Below are positions 7,692-13,202 of a DNA stretch of 64,000 nucleotides, piece by piece. Source of the stretch: Candidatus Poribacteria bacterium (lineage in GTDB: Bacteria; Poribacteria; WGA-4E; PCPOR2b); contig OZ244042.1 of assembly GCA_965215015.1 (NCBI GenBank), positions 4,256,001 through 4,320,000 on the forward strand. The letters are read 5' to 3'. Position 1 is the stretch's first letter. Each line of letters starts with the position of its first letter. The position numbers and the translations under genes were made by a program. The notes below the pieces were generated by a model. That model saw only the letters and a list, made by a program, of their open reading frames with translations, did no database searches and was not told the origin of the DNA.

Positions 7692-8342
7692 CTATCTCCT
7701 CAACTCTTGGGCGGCATCAGTTTTAAGGACTTTATAGCTACATATCGAATCCCCGGTGGGCATGTGGCATTCTCGCTCAACCGGGACATCAAGTAGCCGC
7801 TGCAACAGTGATAATTCGAGCTGGCAAAGTTGAGGATACTTTTTTGCGATGGATTCAAGGGCACAGTTGTGTTCTTTGAGGATGTAGGCATTTGGTGTTT
7901 CCGCGATCTCGACCTGATAGCCTTCTTCATCCAAAAACGCAGCAAGTACTTTAATCTTTTCAGCTAAACTCTTACCTGCGATAGCGTTGAGACACATCGC
8001 GATCTTCGCTTCCATCTGATATTCAAGAAGCTGGTTGACCTTTTCTGCGCCATCAATCACCACCAAGGCATCCAAAGTACCCAGCGCAAACCGCGGGTAA
8101 TCATTTGGAAATAGACTCTCCTTTGCCTCCGAGGTAAGTTTATATATGTAGACAGGTCTACCTCTGCTAATTTTTTCGCGATAGTGTTGAATATAGCCTT
8201 CCCGTTCCAAGATAGACAGATGCTGACGCACTGTCATGGAATGGAGGTCTAATTCCTTGGCAATTTCACCGGCTGTCATACCGTTGTTTTTTTTCAAAAG
8301 TTCGACGATTGCGCCGCGTGTGTCTTTGGGTACTGATTTCAT
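7692..8342 (-). CDS. SufR-like HTH transcriptional regulator with Cys-containing C-terminal domain
   Basis: N-terminal wHTH (MTVRQHLSILE..GRPVYIY) and C-terminal HNC-x12-C-x2-E...C-x8-C, like SufR-family Fe-S sensors. Confidence 0.8.
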   Translation of the reverse strand: MKSVPKDTRGAIVELLKKNNGMTAGEIAKELDLHSMTVRQHLSILEREGYIQHYREKISRGRPVYIYKLTSEAKESLFPNDYPRFALGTLDALVVIDGAEKVNQLLEYQMEAKIAMCLNAIAGKSLAEKIKVLAAFLDEEGYQVEIAETPNAYILKEHNCALESIAKKYPQLCQLELSLLQRLLDVPVERECHMPTGDSICSYKVLKTDAAQELRR

Positions 8343-8479
8343 CGTTTCACCTTCCCCGTTTTGGTAGCGAACACGCCTTAACTCCCGCTCATTCCTATTT
8401 TCCCCAAGATTCCTTGATTAGACAAAGATTAGACAAAAATGTTAACTACTGAACCTTTTGCCGGTATAATGCTGCTGAA

Positions 8480-8566
8480 ATTATATCAGAAAAATAACAC
8501 ATTTACAAGTCAAAATATGTTTTTTAAGTTATTTACTTGACAAAACATAAAATATCGTGTTACTAT
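8480..8566. promoter_or_regulatory. Back-to-back sigma70 promoters with a central inverted repeat
   Basis: Minus strand: TTGTAA (8508-8503)-17-TATAAT (8485-8480). Plus strand: TTGACA (8537-8542)-18-TACTAT (8561-8566). Inverted repeat TATGTTTT...AAAACATA at 8516-8549. Confidence 0.65.
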
Positions 8567-8634
8567 TCCATCAATTCGATGCTAAACCTTGTTACAATAA
8601 GGTAGTTTAACAACTTTTTAGGAGAGCGAGGGAG

Positions 8635-9621
8635 ATGACAACAAGGGCAAATGAAACGGTCGGCGGAACGTTCAACCGAGACCTTGTTGAAGAGCCGATC
8701 AAAGGTACGGAGAGATATGAAGGCGACGCCGAGTGGGCAACACCGTCAGAGGAGGATGCGTCAATGCTGCATATTGATGCGTTAAGCACCTGGTTGCAGA
8801 CGGTTTCACAGCACGGGCTATTGTCTAGGGAGCAAGAGATAGAGCTTGCCAAGCGAATTGAACAGAATGATGAGAGTGCACGCGATGAGTTGGTCCAAGC
8901 GAATCTACGCTTAGTGGTTTCAGTCGCGATGAAGTATCAAGGGCATAATGTCCCCCTTGAAGATCTCATCCAAGAGGGAAATATTGGGTTGATGCGAGCA
9001 GCGAGTAAATTCGACTATCGGAAGGGATTTAAGTTTAGCACCTACGCCATTTGGTGGATTCGGCAGGCGATAATGAGGACGCTCGATAATTGTTCGCGCT
9101 CAATCCGGCTGCCCTCTTATGTCGTTGCGAAGGCGAGCAAATTTGATTCCGCTTATGCACACCTCAGTCAAGCCCTCCATCGTGAACCAACGATTGAGGA
9201 ACTATCGGAAGTGCTTGAGTTGACCGCTAAACAGATTGAAGATCTTTTGGTACTCAATTCCGGTACAGTATCGCTTGAGTTGCCGCTCAACGACGAAAAG
9301 AATGCAGCCACCTTGAGCGATCTGATCGAAGACCCCCAATCGAACCCAGAAGCCGGTCCGATTGCGGATTTGGTTAAAAGAGACTTAGTAGACACGCTCC
9401 TCAGTAAATTGAAAGCGAGAGAGCGGGAAGTGATTAAGATGCGCTATGGTCTTGAAGATGGTGAAGAAAAGACTTTGCGTGAAATTGGGGAGAAGATGGA
9501 GGTTACACGGGAACGGATTCGACAACTGGAGATTAAGGCACTAGCTCGTATAAAACGTCTGTACGACGAAGCGGGCGAACTTCAAATTCCGAAGGACGCG
9601 CCGAGCTGTCCGGCTGCGTAG
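8635..9621 (+). CDS. Alternative sigma-70 factor (RpoD-related, no region 1.1)
   Basis: ANLRLVVSVA, DLIQEGNIGLMRA, GFKFSTYAIWWIRQAI and VTRERIRQLE motifs; 328 aa. Confidence 0.93.
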   Translation: MTTRANETVGGTFNRDLVEEPIKGTERYEGDAEWATPSEEDASMLHIDALSTWLQTVSQHGLLSREQEIELAKRIEQNDESARDELVQANLRLVVSVAMKYQGHNVPLEDLIQEGNIGLMRAASKFDYRKGFKFSTYAIWWIRQAIMRTLDNCSRSIRLPSYVVAKASKFDSAYAHLSQALHREPTIEELSEVLELTAKQIEDLLVLNSGTVSLELPLNDEKNAATLSDLIEDPQSNPEAGPIADLVKRDLVDTLLSKLKAREREVIKMRYGLEDGEEKTLREIGEKMEVTRERIRQLEIKALARIKRLYDEAGELQIPKDAPSCPAA

Positions 9622-9646
9622 CATCCGCCAACACTAAGGAGACACA

Positions 9647-10279
9647 ATGAAGAATCTACTAAATAAATTAAAACCGAAACAACCCCAAACTGTAGAGGGT
9701 TCCGCACTGCTTACGGTTACTGAAGCCGCCAAGCAAAAGATTCAAGCGGTGATCGAAGACCAAGGGATGGAAGTTGAGGGGCTGCGCATCAGCATCAATG
9801 GACGCTCCGCATCAGCGTTTGAGTATGGGCTTGGGCTTGAAGTTGAACCTGCCCCCAATGATATCGTGGTTGACTGTGACGAATTTCAGGTTTTTATCAA
9901 TCCGGAAAGTGCTGAAAACCTAAAAGGGGCAACCGTCGATTACGTGGAAGACCTAAATTCGAGCGGTTTCAAGATTGATAACCCGAACGCACCGACATGG
10001 GATAATCCCAAAGCGCAAGCTATTCAACAGCTCATTGACGAGCGAATCAATCCTGCGGTCGCATCGCACGGTGGACACATCGATCTACTGGATGTTACAG
10101 ACGATTCCATCTACATCCACATGGGGGGCGGCTGCCAAGGGTGTGGCATGGCAAATGTCACCTTGAAGCACGGAATTGAGGGGATGATTCAAGAACATTT
10201 CCCCGAAATTAGGAATATTATTGATACCACCGACCACGCCGCCGGTGCAAACCCCTACTACCAACCGAGCAAGGGTTAA
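9647..10279 (+). CDS. nfuA: Fe-S cluster carrier NfuA (degenerate A-type domain plus Nfu domain)
   Basis: IscA-like N-domain lacking the conserved Cys (GATVDYVE..GFKIDNPN); INPAVASHGG and GGCQGC in the Nfu domain. Confidence 0.9.
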   Translation: MKNLLNKLKPKQPQTVEGSALLTVTEAAKQKIQAVIEDQGMEVEGLRISINGRSASAFEYGLGLEVEPAPNDIVVDCDEFQVFINPESAENLKGATVDYVEDLNSSGFKIDNPNAPTWDNPKAQAIQQLIDERINPAVASHGGHIDLLDVTDDSIYIHMGGGCQGCGMANVTLKHGIEGMIQEHFPEIRNIIDTTDHAAGANPYYQPSKG

Positions 10280-10287
10280 AAGCGAAA

Positions 10288-10378
10288 GGGGCATGTCAAA
10301 AGAAAGTGCTAAACGCTAGGAGTCCCCGAGTTTTTGCCAAAAACTCGGGGACTGTTGCACTATTTCTGAACATGAGCC
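10288..10378. mobile_element. MITE-like element, family 2 (ends GGCTCATGTCAAAAGAAAGTGC-like), with internal palindrome
   Basis: Imperfect terminal inverted repeats enclose the perfect hairpin AGTCCCCGAGTTTTT-GCC-AAAAACTCGGGGACT (10321-10353). Related copies lie at ~1093-1161, 32402-32578 and 33890-33964. Confidence 0.6.
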
Positions 10379-10397
10379 AATCGAAAAAGTAAAGTTG

Positions 10398-11906
10398 ATG
10401 ATGAAACATCCGGGAGCAATAGTACTCATTTCTTGTTACGAACTAGGGCATCAGCCGATCGGTCTTGCCTCCCCACTTGGGTTTCTTGAGCGCGCTGGAT
10501 ATGCGCCGAATGTGATGGACATTGCTGTTGAAACCCTAGATGTGGAAAAAGCTGCCCGTGCAGAGTTTGTTGGGATTTGCGTGCCGATGCACACCGCCCT
10601 CCGTCTAGGTGTCCATGTTGCAACCCGCCTCCGCAAAATTAACCCTACCTGCCATATCTGCTTCTACGGTCTCTATGCGTCACTGAACGCTGAATACCTG
10701 CTCAAACGTCACGCCGATTCAGTCATCGGGGGTGAATATGAGAAGCCATTGCTCGAATTGGTTGAGTCCTTTGCAAGTGGGAGTCGTATTGAGATACCAG
10801 GTGTCCTCCGAAGTGAGAGTGCCAAATTACTTCAGGATAACCCGCAATCCAGCCCCTTCCTGAGGCCTTCGCACTCTAGGGTAAGTGTGTATAAACCGCG
10901 CAGCAATCCGTCCAGCGAACCCCTCCCTGTACCGAGCCGGAAGCGGCTTCCGTTACTCGATAGATATGCACGCCTCGAACAAAATGGCGTAGCTCACCTG
11001 GCCGGTTATGTAGAGGCAAGCCGCGGATGCAAACACCTCTGTTTCCACTGCCCCATCCCTCCGGTGTATGAGGGCAACTTTTCCGTCGTGCCGCAAGAGG
11101 TTGTACTGGAGGATATTCGGGCTCAAGTTGATGCCGGTGCGGCTCACATCACATTCGGCGATCCTGATTTCCTTAACGGTCCCAAGCACGCGCTTAGGAT
11201 TGTTCAAGCCATGCACGAGGCGTTTCCGAACCTGACCTTTGACTGCACAACTAAAATTGAGCATCTCCTGAAGCACCGTTCTATCCTGCCTGAACTCCGC
11301 GACTGTGGCTGCATTTTTATTGTTTCCGCTGTTGAGTCGCTCAACGACACAGTACTTGAGAACCTCCAGAAAGGACATACACGCGCCGACGTTTTTGCTG
11401 TCATCGATCTTTTGAAAGAGGTTGGGATTGCGCTGCGCCCCTCGCTCGTTCCGTTCACGCCGTGGGAGACTCTCGATAGCTATCTGTATATCCTCAATTC
11501 CGTTGAAAGCAAAGAACTAATTGATTACATCGATCCCGTGCAGTACACGATTCGGTTGCTTATTCCGCCCGGTTCTTCCCTGCTACCCCAACTATCCATT
11601 CAACCCTACCTTGGAGCACTCAATCAGGAATCCTTCACCTACCGTTGGACACACCCCGATTCACGCATGGATGAACTCCACAAAGCAGTCAGTGTCACTG
11701 TAGAGAGCACATCACAGATTGGTGAGGATGCGTTTGTAACCTTTCATCGAGTGCGTAGCCTTGCGTATTCTGCAATCGGTAGAAAGGAATCTCCCATAGC
11801 GTTCCCACTAGATTTTGAATCTGACCGAAAACGACCGCCACGCCTGACTGAAGATTGGTTCTGCTGAGCGGAACCAACGCAGGGTCAGTTGGACTCGCTC
11901 AACTAA
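10398..11906 (+). CDS. B12-binding radical SAM selenoprotein (CUAEP-tail type); UGA 11865-11867 read as Sec
   Basis: CKHLCFHC cluster motif and an N-terminal cobalamin-binding-like domain. WFC-TGA-AEPTQGQLDSLN-TAA matches the CUAEP/CCAEP tail family, and a SECIS-like hairpin follows the UGA. Confidence 0.85.
11866..11900 (+). promoter_or_regulatory. Bacterial SECIS-like stem-loop
   Basis: GAGCG-gaa-CCAAC-gcagggtca-GTTGG-act-CGCTC at and immediately 3' of the in-frame UGA. Confidence 0.7.
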
Positions 11907-11912
11907 TGCGAT

Positions 11913-13202
11913 TTACACCATTAACTTCTCAATCTCATCAATTGTTTTCGGTACGGCCTCCGTTAGAACTTCGCAGCCGGACTCGGTGATTAGAATATTG
12001 TCCTCAATCCGTACTCCAATCCCCAGATACTCTGGTGGGACGTTTTCGCTGTCAGGAGCAATGTAGAGTCCCGGCTCGACAGTCATCACCATTCCCGGTT
12101 GGAAGGTTTTGTACTCCTCCCTTTCCCGTGTCTTCGCCACATCGTGAACCTCTACCCCTAGCATGTGCCCGACACTGTGCATGTAAAACCTTCGATGTTC
12201 CTGTTCCTCAATCAGCTCTTCCTTCTCTCCGACCAATAGCCCCAGTTTTAGCATCGCTTCAGTCAACATCTCCACTGCATTCTGAACGGGATCCCCAATC
12301 GAAACGCCGGGACCAATGCTTTCGATAATTTCACACTGGACATTGAGGACTGATTGGTAGACGGCACATTGCGCCTCCGTAAACTTCCCATTCGCAGGGA
12401 ATGTTCGGGTTATGTCACCACAATAGTATTGGTATTCACATCCCGCATCAATGAGTACCAAATCCCCATCTCCGATTTGGCAGTCGTTCGCCGTATAGTG
12501 CAGCGTCGTTGCATTTGCGCCCTTTGCTACAATCGTGAGGAATGCGGGACCTGTGCCGCCGTTTTTCCGATAAATTGAGTCTATTAGACTTTCCAATTCA
12601 TATTCGTACATGCCGGGGCGAACCGTCTGCATCGCTGCTGTATGTGCTTCAACACTGATGTCTACCGCTTTGCGAATCCGCCCGAGTTCCGTTTCATCTT
12701 TGAAGAGACGCATCTCGGCAAGGATGTGGGTGGGGTCAATTAAGACGGCCGGTCCCGTTCCTTCGCGCAAACGATGGCGTCTATATCCCTTGAGGAGTTC
12801 AATAATTTTTTGATTAAAGGCTTCGTCCGCGCCGAATCCGTAGTAGAGCCGCTCCGCTTTCCCAATATATTCAGAGATCTTTTCGTCAAACTCCTCAATG
12901 GGATAGGCTTCATCGGCACCGAAGCGTTCTTTTGCGCCCTCGACGCCGGCGCGCTTGCCTGTCCATACCTCCTGTTCAGGGGCGCGGGGACGCACGAATA
13001 AAACATACTGGTGCTCAGGGTGATCAGGGGCGATTACGCAAACCGACTCCGGCTCCTCGAAGCCGGTTAAATAGTAGAAATTAGCGTCCTGACGGTATCT
13101 ATATTCGGTCGAGTGTGTACGCATCGCCGGCAACGCGCTTGGAAAGATTGCAACACCTCCCACTATTTTTTCCATAAATGTTTTGCGTCTGTTTTCGTGC
13201 AT
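11913..13202 (-). CDS. pepP: Xaa-Pro aminopeptidase
   Basis: YRQDANFYYLTGF, DAGCE..GDITRTFP, HSVGHMLG, TVEPGLY and GVRIED motifs. Confidence 0.93.
   Translation of the reverse strand: MHENRRKTFMEKIVGGVAIFPSALPAMRTHSTEYRYRQDANFYYLTGFEEPESVCVIAPDHPEHQYVLFVRPRAPEQEVWTGKRAGVEGAKERFGADEAYPIEEFDEKISEYIGKAERLYYGFGADEAFNQKIIELLKGYRRHRLREGTGPAVLIDPTHILAEMRLFKDETELGRIRKAVDISVEAHTAAMQTVRPGMYEYELESLIDSIYRKNGGTGPAFLTIVAKGANATTLHYTANDCQIGDGDLVLIDAGCEYQYYCGDITRTFPANGKFTEAQCAVYQSVLNVQCEIIESIGPGVSIGDPVQNAVEMLTEAMLKLGLLVGEKEELIEEQEHRRFYMHSVGHMLGVEVHDVAKTREREEYKTFQPGMVMTVEPGLYIAPDSENVPPEYLGIGVRIEDNILITESGCEVLTEAVPKTIDEIEKLMV

Follow-up and report, generated by a model that had tools for sequence, protein, structure and literature searches.

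The 64-kb window analysed here (contig OZ244042.1) belongs to a one-contig, 5.94-Mb genome of Candidatus Poribacteria, a sponge symbiont, and holds a gene for a SufR-like regulator that faces away from genes for a sigma-70 factor and an NfuA-like iron–sulphur (Fe-S) carrier, with a radical S-adenosylmethionine (rSAM) gene further downstream. Coordinates without a prefix are those of the window. The rSAM open reading frame (ORF; 10395–11867, plus strand) ends at a TGA from which an in-frame extension runs to a TAA at 11904–11906, and spacers of 25 nt (9622–9646) and 115 nt (10280–10394) separate sigma from nfuA and nfuA from the rSAM gene. An earlier note on this DNA had described these four genes, the 25-bp gap between sigma and nfuA and a repeat-filled gap after nfuA, and the ORF coordinates and family searches agree with that description. 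The divergence of the regulator from sigma–nfuA, also noted earlier, is borne out by back-to-back promoter-like sites with −35 hexamers at 8503–8508 (minus strand) and 8537–8542 (plus strand). The features from the regulator to nfuA are as follows.

7692–8342, minus strand: SufR-family (COG2345-type) regulator, paralog A, 216 aa (ORF, Pfam and NCBIfam matches, motif positions)
8480–8508, minus strand: promoter-like site of the regulator, TTGTAA-N17-TATAAT with TG before the −10 (consensus scan; kept wherever the regulator is present)
8520–8546, no strand assigned: A/T-flanked imperfect palindrome with a T6 tract, core and A4 tract, a candidate SufR-type operator (pattern search and conservation)
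8537–8566, plus strand: promoter-like site of sigma–nfuA, TTGACA-N18-TACTAT with TG before the −10 (consensus scan)
8635–9621, plus strand: alternative group-2-like sigma-70 factor, 328 aa (family searches: regions 1.2, 2, 3 and 4, no region 1.1)
9647–10279, plus strand: NfuA-type Fe-S carrier, 210 aa (Pfam PF01521 at residues 22–115, PF01106 at residues 126–191)

The regulator has an ArsR-type winged helix-turn-helix (HTH; Pfam) and aligns along its whole length with the SufR_cyano model TIGR02702, at 113.1 bits and under the cut-off of 178.8. The COG2345 family is marked by R-R-H in the recognition helix and by a GRP AT-hook in the wing (bioRxiv 10.64898/2025.12.26.696629), and the regulator has RQH at residues 39–41 of the recognition helix and an RGRP AT-hook at residues 60–63. 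Its putative [4Fe-4S] ligands, C160-X12-C173-X2-E176-X24-C201, have a spacing identical to that of the cluster ligands C179, C192, E195 and C220 in the structure obtained by cryo-EM for Mycobacterium tuberculosis (Mtb) SufR (bioRxiv 10.64898/2025.12.26.696629). A protein homologue search returned 39 matches, all from close relatives and one of them carrying the JGI name suf operon repressor; the three features are kept in 38 of these 39 homologues and in all 20 aligned representatives of the two paralogs introduced below. Every published family motif is thus present, with the ligand spacing of Mtb SufR, and the SufR-like label given earlier can stand. A sequence search of the PDB returned generic winged HTH proteins and no SufR structure. 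Judging from sequence, we place the regulator among the SufR-family sensors; it is probably a dimeric repressor that binds a [4Fe-4S] cluster and would read A/T tracts through its AT-hook. It is the sole SufR-like gene in the 5.94-Mb genome, in which no Rrf2/IscR gene was found. Outside Poribacteria, a contig of the Firmicute Paenibacillus oceani (L113) encodes a protein 37% identical to the regulator.

The sigma factor is one of four RpoD-like genes, among which only C1:1938677 passes the RpoD cut-off, and it is 35% identical to this primary sigma factor. Conserved stretches that we read as regions 2.4 and 4.2, the regions that read the −10 and −35, are kept. Because regions 1.2–4 are present, a separate primary sigma factor exists and the −10/−35 reading regions are retained, we assign the protein to the group-2-like alternative sigma factors. 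The NfuA-like protein carries a single Cys in a degenerate A-type N-terminal domain and CQGC in its Nfu C-terminal domain, and scores 124.6 bits on TIGR03341, a proteobacterial equivalog model with a cut-off of 269.

Regulator and sigma–nfuA across Poribacteria

The pairing of sigma with nfuA is close to universal in the phylum as sampled: of 80 poribacterial loci, 79 have sigma immediately upstream of nfuA, and the one exception has an insert of ~2 kb. This set overlaps the genomes of the regulator-centred and nfuA-centred sets; in the latter, drawn from families f2, f3 and f4, sigma stands upstream of nfuA in 16 of 18 loci. Of the 80 loci, 26 have a divergent regulator of full length and 19 an rSAM gene downstream. 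Conserved synteny, on which the earlier note had made its proposal depend, is therefore found for sigma–nfuA (79/80) and, at the level of the family, for regulator–sigma (26/80 full-length, plus relics).

A homologue of the regulator occurs in 60 of 61 related genomes, in the form of two paralogs. Paralog A, 50–100% identical to the window protein, is always divergent from sigma–nfuA and accounts for 14 of the 32 regulator-centred loci; the other 18 hold paralog B or more distant copies. These 14 loci span all seven sampled genera of the window's family, plus two genomes of family f4 (G031 and G049). Paralog B is 37–47% identical to the window protein, scores 137–143 bits on TIGR02702 (also under the cut-off) and has a near-identical recognition helix and AT-hook. 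A gene for a NapG/MauM-like polyferredoxin adjoins it in 18 of 19 loci (e.g. L043, L054 and L056) and lies ~3 kb away in G044. The window's genus has paralog A only and families f2 and f3 have B, while in family f4 (loci L049 and L052) A and the B–polyferredoxin pair share one cluster around nfuA–sigma. In f3, only a stub of paralog A is left in G033, G042 has a shortened copy and G030 an interrupted one, and no copy was found next to sigma in G045, G051, G036, G057 and G053. The window's own genome keeps the polyferredoxin gene (C1:5468899–5469501) and has no paralog B.

Insertions of ~1–1.4 kb were seen within the regulator–sigma intergenic region of two relatives (L037:9650–11300; L049:8790–9900). 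In G008 the insert separates the sigma promoter from the start codon of sigma; in G031 it stands between the regulator promoter and the box.

The intergenic box and the suf promoter

Overlapping the sigma promoter's −35, the 27-bp palindromic box is embedded in an intergenic core of ~95 bp (~8478–8570) that is near invariant from the window's genus to family f4, despite a regulator identity of ~50% there. The sigma–nfuA promoter is itself nearly invariant across the order, genomes without the regulator included. No second genomic copy of the 98-bp core was found by BLAST, for which the box alone is too short. Searched as a strict pattern, the box occurs at two places in 5.94 Mb, the sigma promoter and C1:3901473–3901490, upstream of moaA-suf.

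At C1:3894069–3900230, ~365 kb from the regulator (~C1:4263700), the suf genes run as sufC, sufB and sufD, then a glutaredoxin-like gene, then sufS and sufU; the regulator sits apart from suf, as the earlier note implied. Among the 32 regulator-centred loci of relatives, matches to Suf proteins were confined to weak sufC-like ones (25–28% identity, two loci). The gene upstream of suf (within C1:3900231–3901490) is moaA, as its MoaA score of 389.9 bits, above the cut-off of 284, confirms, and it precedes sufC in 17 of 21 loci, the window's own genome counted. Since the moaA–sufC gap measures only ~50 bp in three congeners, moaA and suf probably form one operon. The moaA–sufC gap of the window's genome measures 138 bp and includes an inverted repeat just upstream of sufC; as an operator this repeat was rejected, given that congeners have only ~50 bp there, and it has the look of an insert. 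A partial copy of the repeat found downstream of nfuA, which resembles a miniature inverted-repeat transposable element (MITE), lies just upstream of the moaA promoter (C1:3901498–3901573).

The earlier note had asked whether the regulator's operator recurs at the promoters of Fe-S assembly genes, and the box common to the sigma promoter and the moaA-suf upstream region is a candidate for such a site. It is kept in relatives at both promoters. A looser pattern, applied to ~0.8 Mb of relatives' loci, found 19 sigma promoters, seven moaA promoters and one other place, and overlooks some diverged sites, such as the sigma promoters of f2 and that of G024. The moaA box of f3 is a true palindrome, since both of its strands match the pattern, and inspection by eye shows one core change, set against the window's family, common to both f3 boxes. 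The window's genome has other, looser matches, which lie within a gene or next to genes for a phosphodiesterase or a TonB-dependent receptor and look like chance. A palindrome between A/T tracts is reported to be essential for SufR binding (bioRxiv 10.64898/2025.12.26.696629); the layout of the box fits published SufR sites, and in sequence it departs from the known sites CAAC-N6-GTTG and ACACT-N5-TGTGA. The box is centred near −42 at the sigma promoter and abuts the −35 at the moaA promoter in most lineages, the moaA box of the window's genus being placed ~11 bp further upstream. Its place over the −35 is suggestive of repression, the mode of known SufR.

The radical SAM selenoprotein downstream of nfuA

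Three further features lie between nfuA and the end of the extended rSAM frame.

10291–10383 (approximate bounds), no strand assigned: dispersed palindromic element resembling a MITE or a repetitive extragenic palindrome (fold and repeat matches)
10395–11906, plus strand: CUAEP-tail radical SAM selenoprotein of family NF040546 (profile match; TGA at 11865–11867 read as selenocysteine, Sec)
11882–11896, plus strand: hairpin resembling a selenocysteine insertion sequence (SECIS), with a 5-bp stem and a 5-nt loop (RNAalifold), starting 15 nt past the UGA

With the TGA read through, the rSAM protein scores 685.3 bits on NF040546 (cut-off 500) and 313.7 bits on the ArsL model NF040542, under the cut-off of 450; ATG codons at 10398 and 10401 are alternative start candidates. 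The family match upholds the radical SAM half of the earlier label of a B12/radical-SAM protein, of which the B12 half is the weaker, the B12 domain PF02310 reaching a borderline 31.9 bits against a cut-off of 32.1. The protein resembles NF040546 members and ArsL in its CxxxCxxC cluster motif (here CKHLCFHC) and in overall architecture, and carries a C-terminal W-F-C-U-A-E-P tail where ArsL has RCCLKC. NF040546 is called uncharacterised in one preprint, with a CU motif that hints at contact with a heavy-metal atom (10.1101/2022.07.06.499078), and the Cys-rich tail of ArsL is described as holding As(III), onto which the aminocarboxypropyl radical of SAM is transferred (10.1101/2024.02.01.577332); the word cobalamin does not occur in the latter preprint. 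No ars genes were seen among the annotated rSAM neighbours.

Several observations sustain the earlier reading of the gene as encoding a selenoprotein. The in-frame TGA is followed by a conserved AEPT..QL tail in all eight poribacterial orthologues first examined, and in further loci. The SECIS-like hairpin was recovered across 14 Sec-type orthologues from several phyla, with 3 of its 5 pairs changed on both sides, a pattern to which codon constraints may contribute. The genome also encodes the Sec machinery, namely selA, selB and selD, plus a tRNA-Sec gene adjoining selAB. At the Sec position, the 20 non-poribacterial loci have TGA in six cases, Cys in 12 and an unreadable codon in two. The selD gene (C1:3518779–3519699) has an in-frame TGA of its own, and selenophosphate synthetase is probably a selenoprotein too. 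The part in selenium stress that the earlier note had given the locus finds no support in any of our results.

A single long hairpin is predicted for the 115-nt gap between nfuA and the rSAM gene (−42.4 kcal/mol, z −5.64), and none of 200 shuffled sequences folded as well. Parts of the element recur at 48 genomic places in a tolerant search that gave no matches with five shuffled queries, while the exact central 31-nt hairpin has one near copy in the genome; in three congeners (G001, G003 and G018) the element is absent at this site. The earlier description of a MITE-like insert holds in that the element is palindromic and dispersed; removing it (~93 of 115 nt) leaves ~22 nt rather than the ~27 noted, and the native gap is not of fixed length. 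Among the 19 relatives with the rSAM gene downstream, the gap measures 54–2510 bp, and 11 of them, all in the genus, carry there a 246-aa ORF that evolves fast and has a hydrophobic N-terminus (e.g. L194:4742–5482). This ORF is 35–77% identical among genomes whose NfuA is 86–91% identical to that of the window; it is split in two genomes and has no copy in the window's genome.

The rSAM gene may well be independent of its neighbours, that is, transcribed from its own promoter, adjacent to nfuA by chance and without functional tie to sensor, sigma factor or NfuA, and we give this explanation somewhat less than an even chance. A position downstream of nfuA in only 19 of 80 loci speaks for it, as does the gap itself, with its variable length, a mobile repeat here and the 246-aa ORF in 11 relatives. 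The family is present in 45 of 61 poribacterial genomes, often apart from nfuA; in G022, G023, G025 and G028, for instance, the gene is located elsewhere in the genome. Moreover, its exact phyletic partner is an unlinked gene for an ATP-grasp L-amino-acid ligase, which occurs in the same 45 of 61 genomes with none discordant (the genomes being related, the number of independent events is overstated). The ligase, with PF13535 and LAL_C2 domains and weak matches to the BacD and DdaF models, has its orthologue in the window's genome at G000:C1:2574049–2575272, 62% identical and unlinked to the rSAM gene; in other phyla the ligase gene lies near the rSAM gene in 9 of 20 loci (L168–L188), and in three Nitrospira loci a DUF169 gene stands between the two. 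Against independence stand the Fe-S carriers that recur beside the rSAM gene in several phyla. A gene with an Nfu domain lies within 6 of the 20 non-poribacterial rSAM loci, once in the order sufD-sufS-sufU-rSAM-nfu, and in f3 a gene for a 117-aa A-type carrier is found 0.5–3.4 kb from the rSAM gene in 11 of 11 genomes. In addition, a scan found no terminator-like site between nfuA and the rSAM gene.

Considering this distribution, the rSAM gene cannot be retained as the core member of the locus for which the earlier note took it, and is best seen as a lineage-specific downstream neighbour, part of a two-enzyme pathway accompanying Fe-S carriers. The shared occurrence of rSAM and ligase suggests that this pathway leads to an unusual amino acid or dipeptide, and the rSAM enzyme is probably a client of Fe-S carriers. 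The obligate ligase partner and the recurrent carrier neighbours provide two leads to the function of this CUAEP-tail selenoprotein.

The extended rSAM frame ends 6 bp from the stop codon of a convergent Xaa-Pro aminopeptidase gene (11913–13202, minus strand), which leaves hardly any space for terminators between the two genes (11904–11915).

Regulatory model, alternatives and significance

We suggest, with a probability of about 0.5, that the regulator, the sigma factor and NfuA belong to a conserved Fe-S homeostasis unit in which a SufR-type sensor would act at a shared box over suf, over its own gene and over sigma–nfuA. Starting from the motifs, synteny and box observed here, we infer binding of a cluster and of DNA, the sign of regulation and a sigma regulon as follows. 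The cluster-bound sensor would occupy the A/T-flanked box over the sigma −35 as well as its counterpart ahead of the distant moaA-sufCBD-sufSU. A shortage of clusters, or damage to them, would release the sensor from the DNA and lift repression of suf, of sigma–nfuA and probably of the regulator gene at the same time, after which the sigma factor would relay the signal to other promoters. Because the same box stands upstream of moaA-suf, sigma–nfuA looks like an added branch of the SufR regulon. The sensor has thus probably not left suf, and the system would be an enlarged SufR regulon made up of suf, the sensor itself and sigma–nfuA. The coupling of a SufR-like sensor to sigma–nfuA, away from suf, is the part of the earlier interpretation that survives, without the rSAM gene as a core member. 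A further step, in which a SufR-family sensor stands atop a sigma cascade and cluster loss calls up assembly, a stress-proof carrier and a dedicated sigma factor that reprograms genes, is more tentative and in our judgement rather doubtful; if true, it would give the first known case of an Fe-S sensor acting via its own sigma factor.

Several points weigh against the proposed homeostasis unit. The regulator scores under the SufR equivalog cut-off and below paralog B (113–116 against 137–143 bits), and the position of the rSAM gene is variable. The strict box pattern was written after both sites had been seen, which makes its uniqueness partly circular. Further, the box and the sigma promoter persist in f2 and f3, where paralog A has decayed or was not found and only B is left; the box is therefore independent of this particular protein, and its control by paralog A is a matter of presumption. 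Judging by its DNA-reading motifs, paralog B could substitute for A at the box, yet the promoter of paralog B itself is without a box. Alternatively, an UP-like element or a site for some other factor could account for the box, whose phasing would suit an activator as well.

Some of these points come together in the explanation that the neighbourhood is inherited without shared control, which we consider unlikely. The intergenic core would then consist of two strong promoters and an UP-like element, the box would be bound by the alpha subunit of RNA polymerase or another factor, and the SufR-like protein would regulate itself only, or other targets. Consistent with this, the right half of the core is kept in genomes that have lost the regulator, the promoter hexamers are near consensus, promoter-like sites are no commoner than in shuffled sequence (five against a mean of 4.9) and the box is placed differently at the sigma and moaA promoters. 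It fits less readily with the restriction of the strict box to two Fe-S-related promoters in the genome, the looser matches being in coding sequence or beside unrelated genes, with the palindromy of the f3 box on both strands in the published layout of SufR sites, and with the finding of no other Fe-S regulator family in the genome. Least probable of all, and by some way, is a specialised ArnR-like paralog that senses O2, NO or redox state and controls sigma–nfuA only, suf being regulated otherwise: COG2345 does include non-suf regulators, with several paralogs in many species (bioRxiv 10.64898/2025.12.26.696629), and paralog A is the more diverged from SufR_cyano and is unlinked to suf, but it is the only family member in the genus, its box recurs at the moaA-suf promoter, and its fourth ligand is Glu as in SufR rather than the His of ArnR.

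Compared with known systems, the enlarged SufR regulon proposed here is close to SufR of cyanobacteria and actinobacteria, with which it shares the R-x-H winged HTH, the GRP AT-hook, the C-X12-C-X2-E-X24-C arrangement, a divergent and probably autoregulated promoter, and a candidate operator, an A/T-flanked palindrome, that is also found at the suf promoter. It differs in that the regulator lies ~365 kb from suf and against a sigma–nfuA operon, falls under the TIGR02702 cut-off, and has in related lineages a second paralog paired with a NapG-like polyferredoxin; the suf operon here also begins with moaA. In Escherichia coli, IscR has type-1 sites at isc, erpA and nfuA, that is, at unlinked promoters of assembly and carrier genes (PMC8593673). 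The likeness would lie in an Fe-S-sensing repressor over the assembly machinery plus nfuA. Unlike the window's regulator, IscR belongs to the Rrf2 family, absent from this genome as far as our search found, and no sigma factor has been described in carrier operons under IscR control. A late-2025 preprint argues for COG2345 as a widespread family with targets broader than suf, and gives one named non-suf example, ArnR of Corynebacterium glutamicum, a SufR-like [4Fe-4S] member with nitrate respiration targets (bioRxiv 10.64898/2025.12.26.696629). ArnR resembles the window's regulator in its COG2345 membership and, if the model holds, in having targets beyond suf; it differs in the His at its fourth ligand, whereas Glu in the window's regulator goes together with linked genes of Fe-S biogenesis. 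Our searches of the literature, subscription journals and supplements aside, brought up no account in which a SufR-type regulator is coupled with a sigma factor, and no paper joining Poribacteria with SufR or NfuA.

Finally, the locus provides a concrete and conserved case of a SufR-type sensor together with a sigma factor and NfuA in an uncultured phylum of sponge symbionts, and its 27-bp candidate operator is defined and testable. If the proposal is true, Fe-S status in these bacteria would be relayed via a sigma factor.

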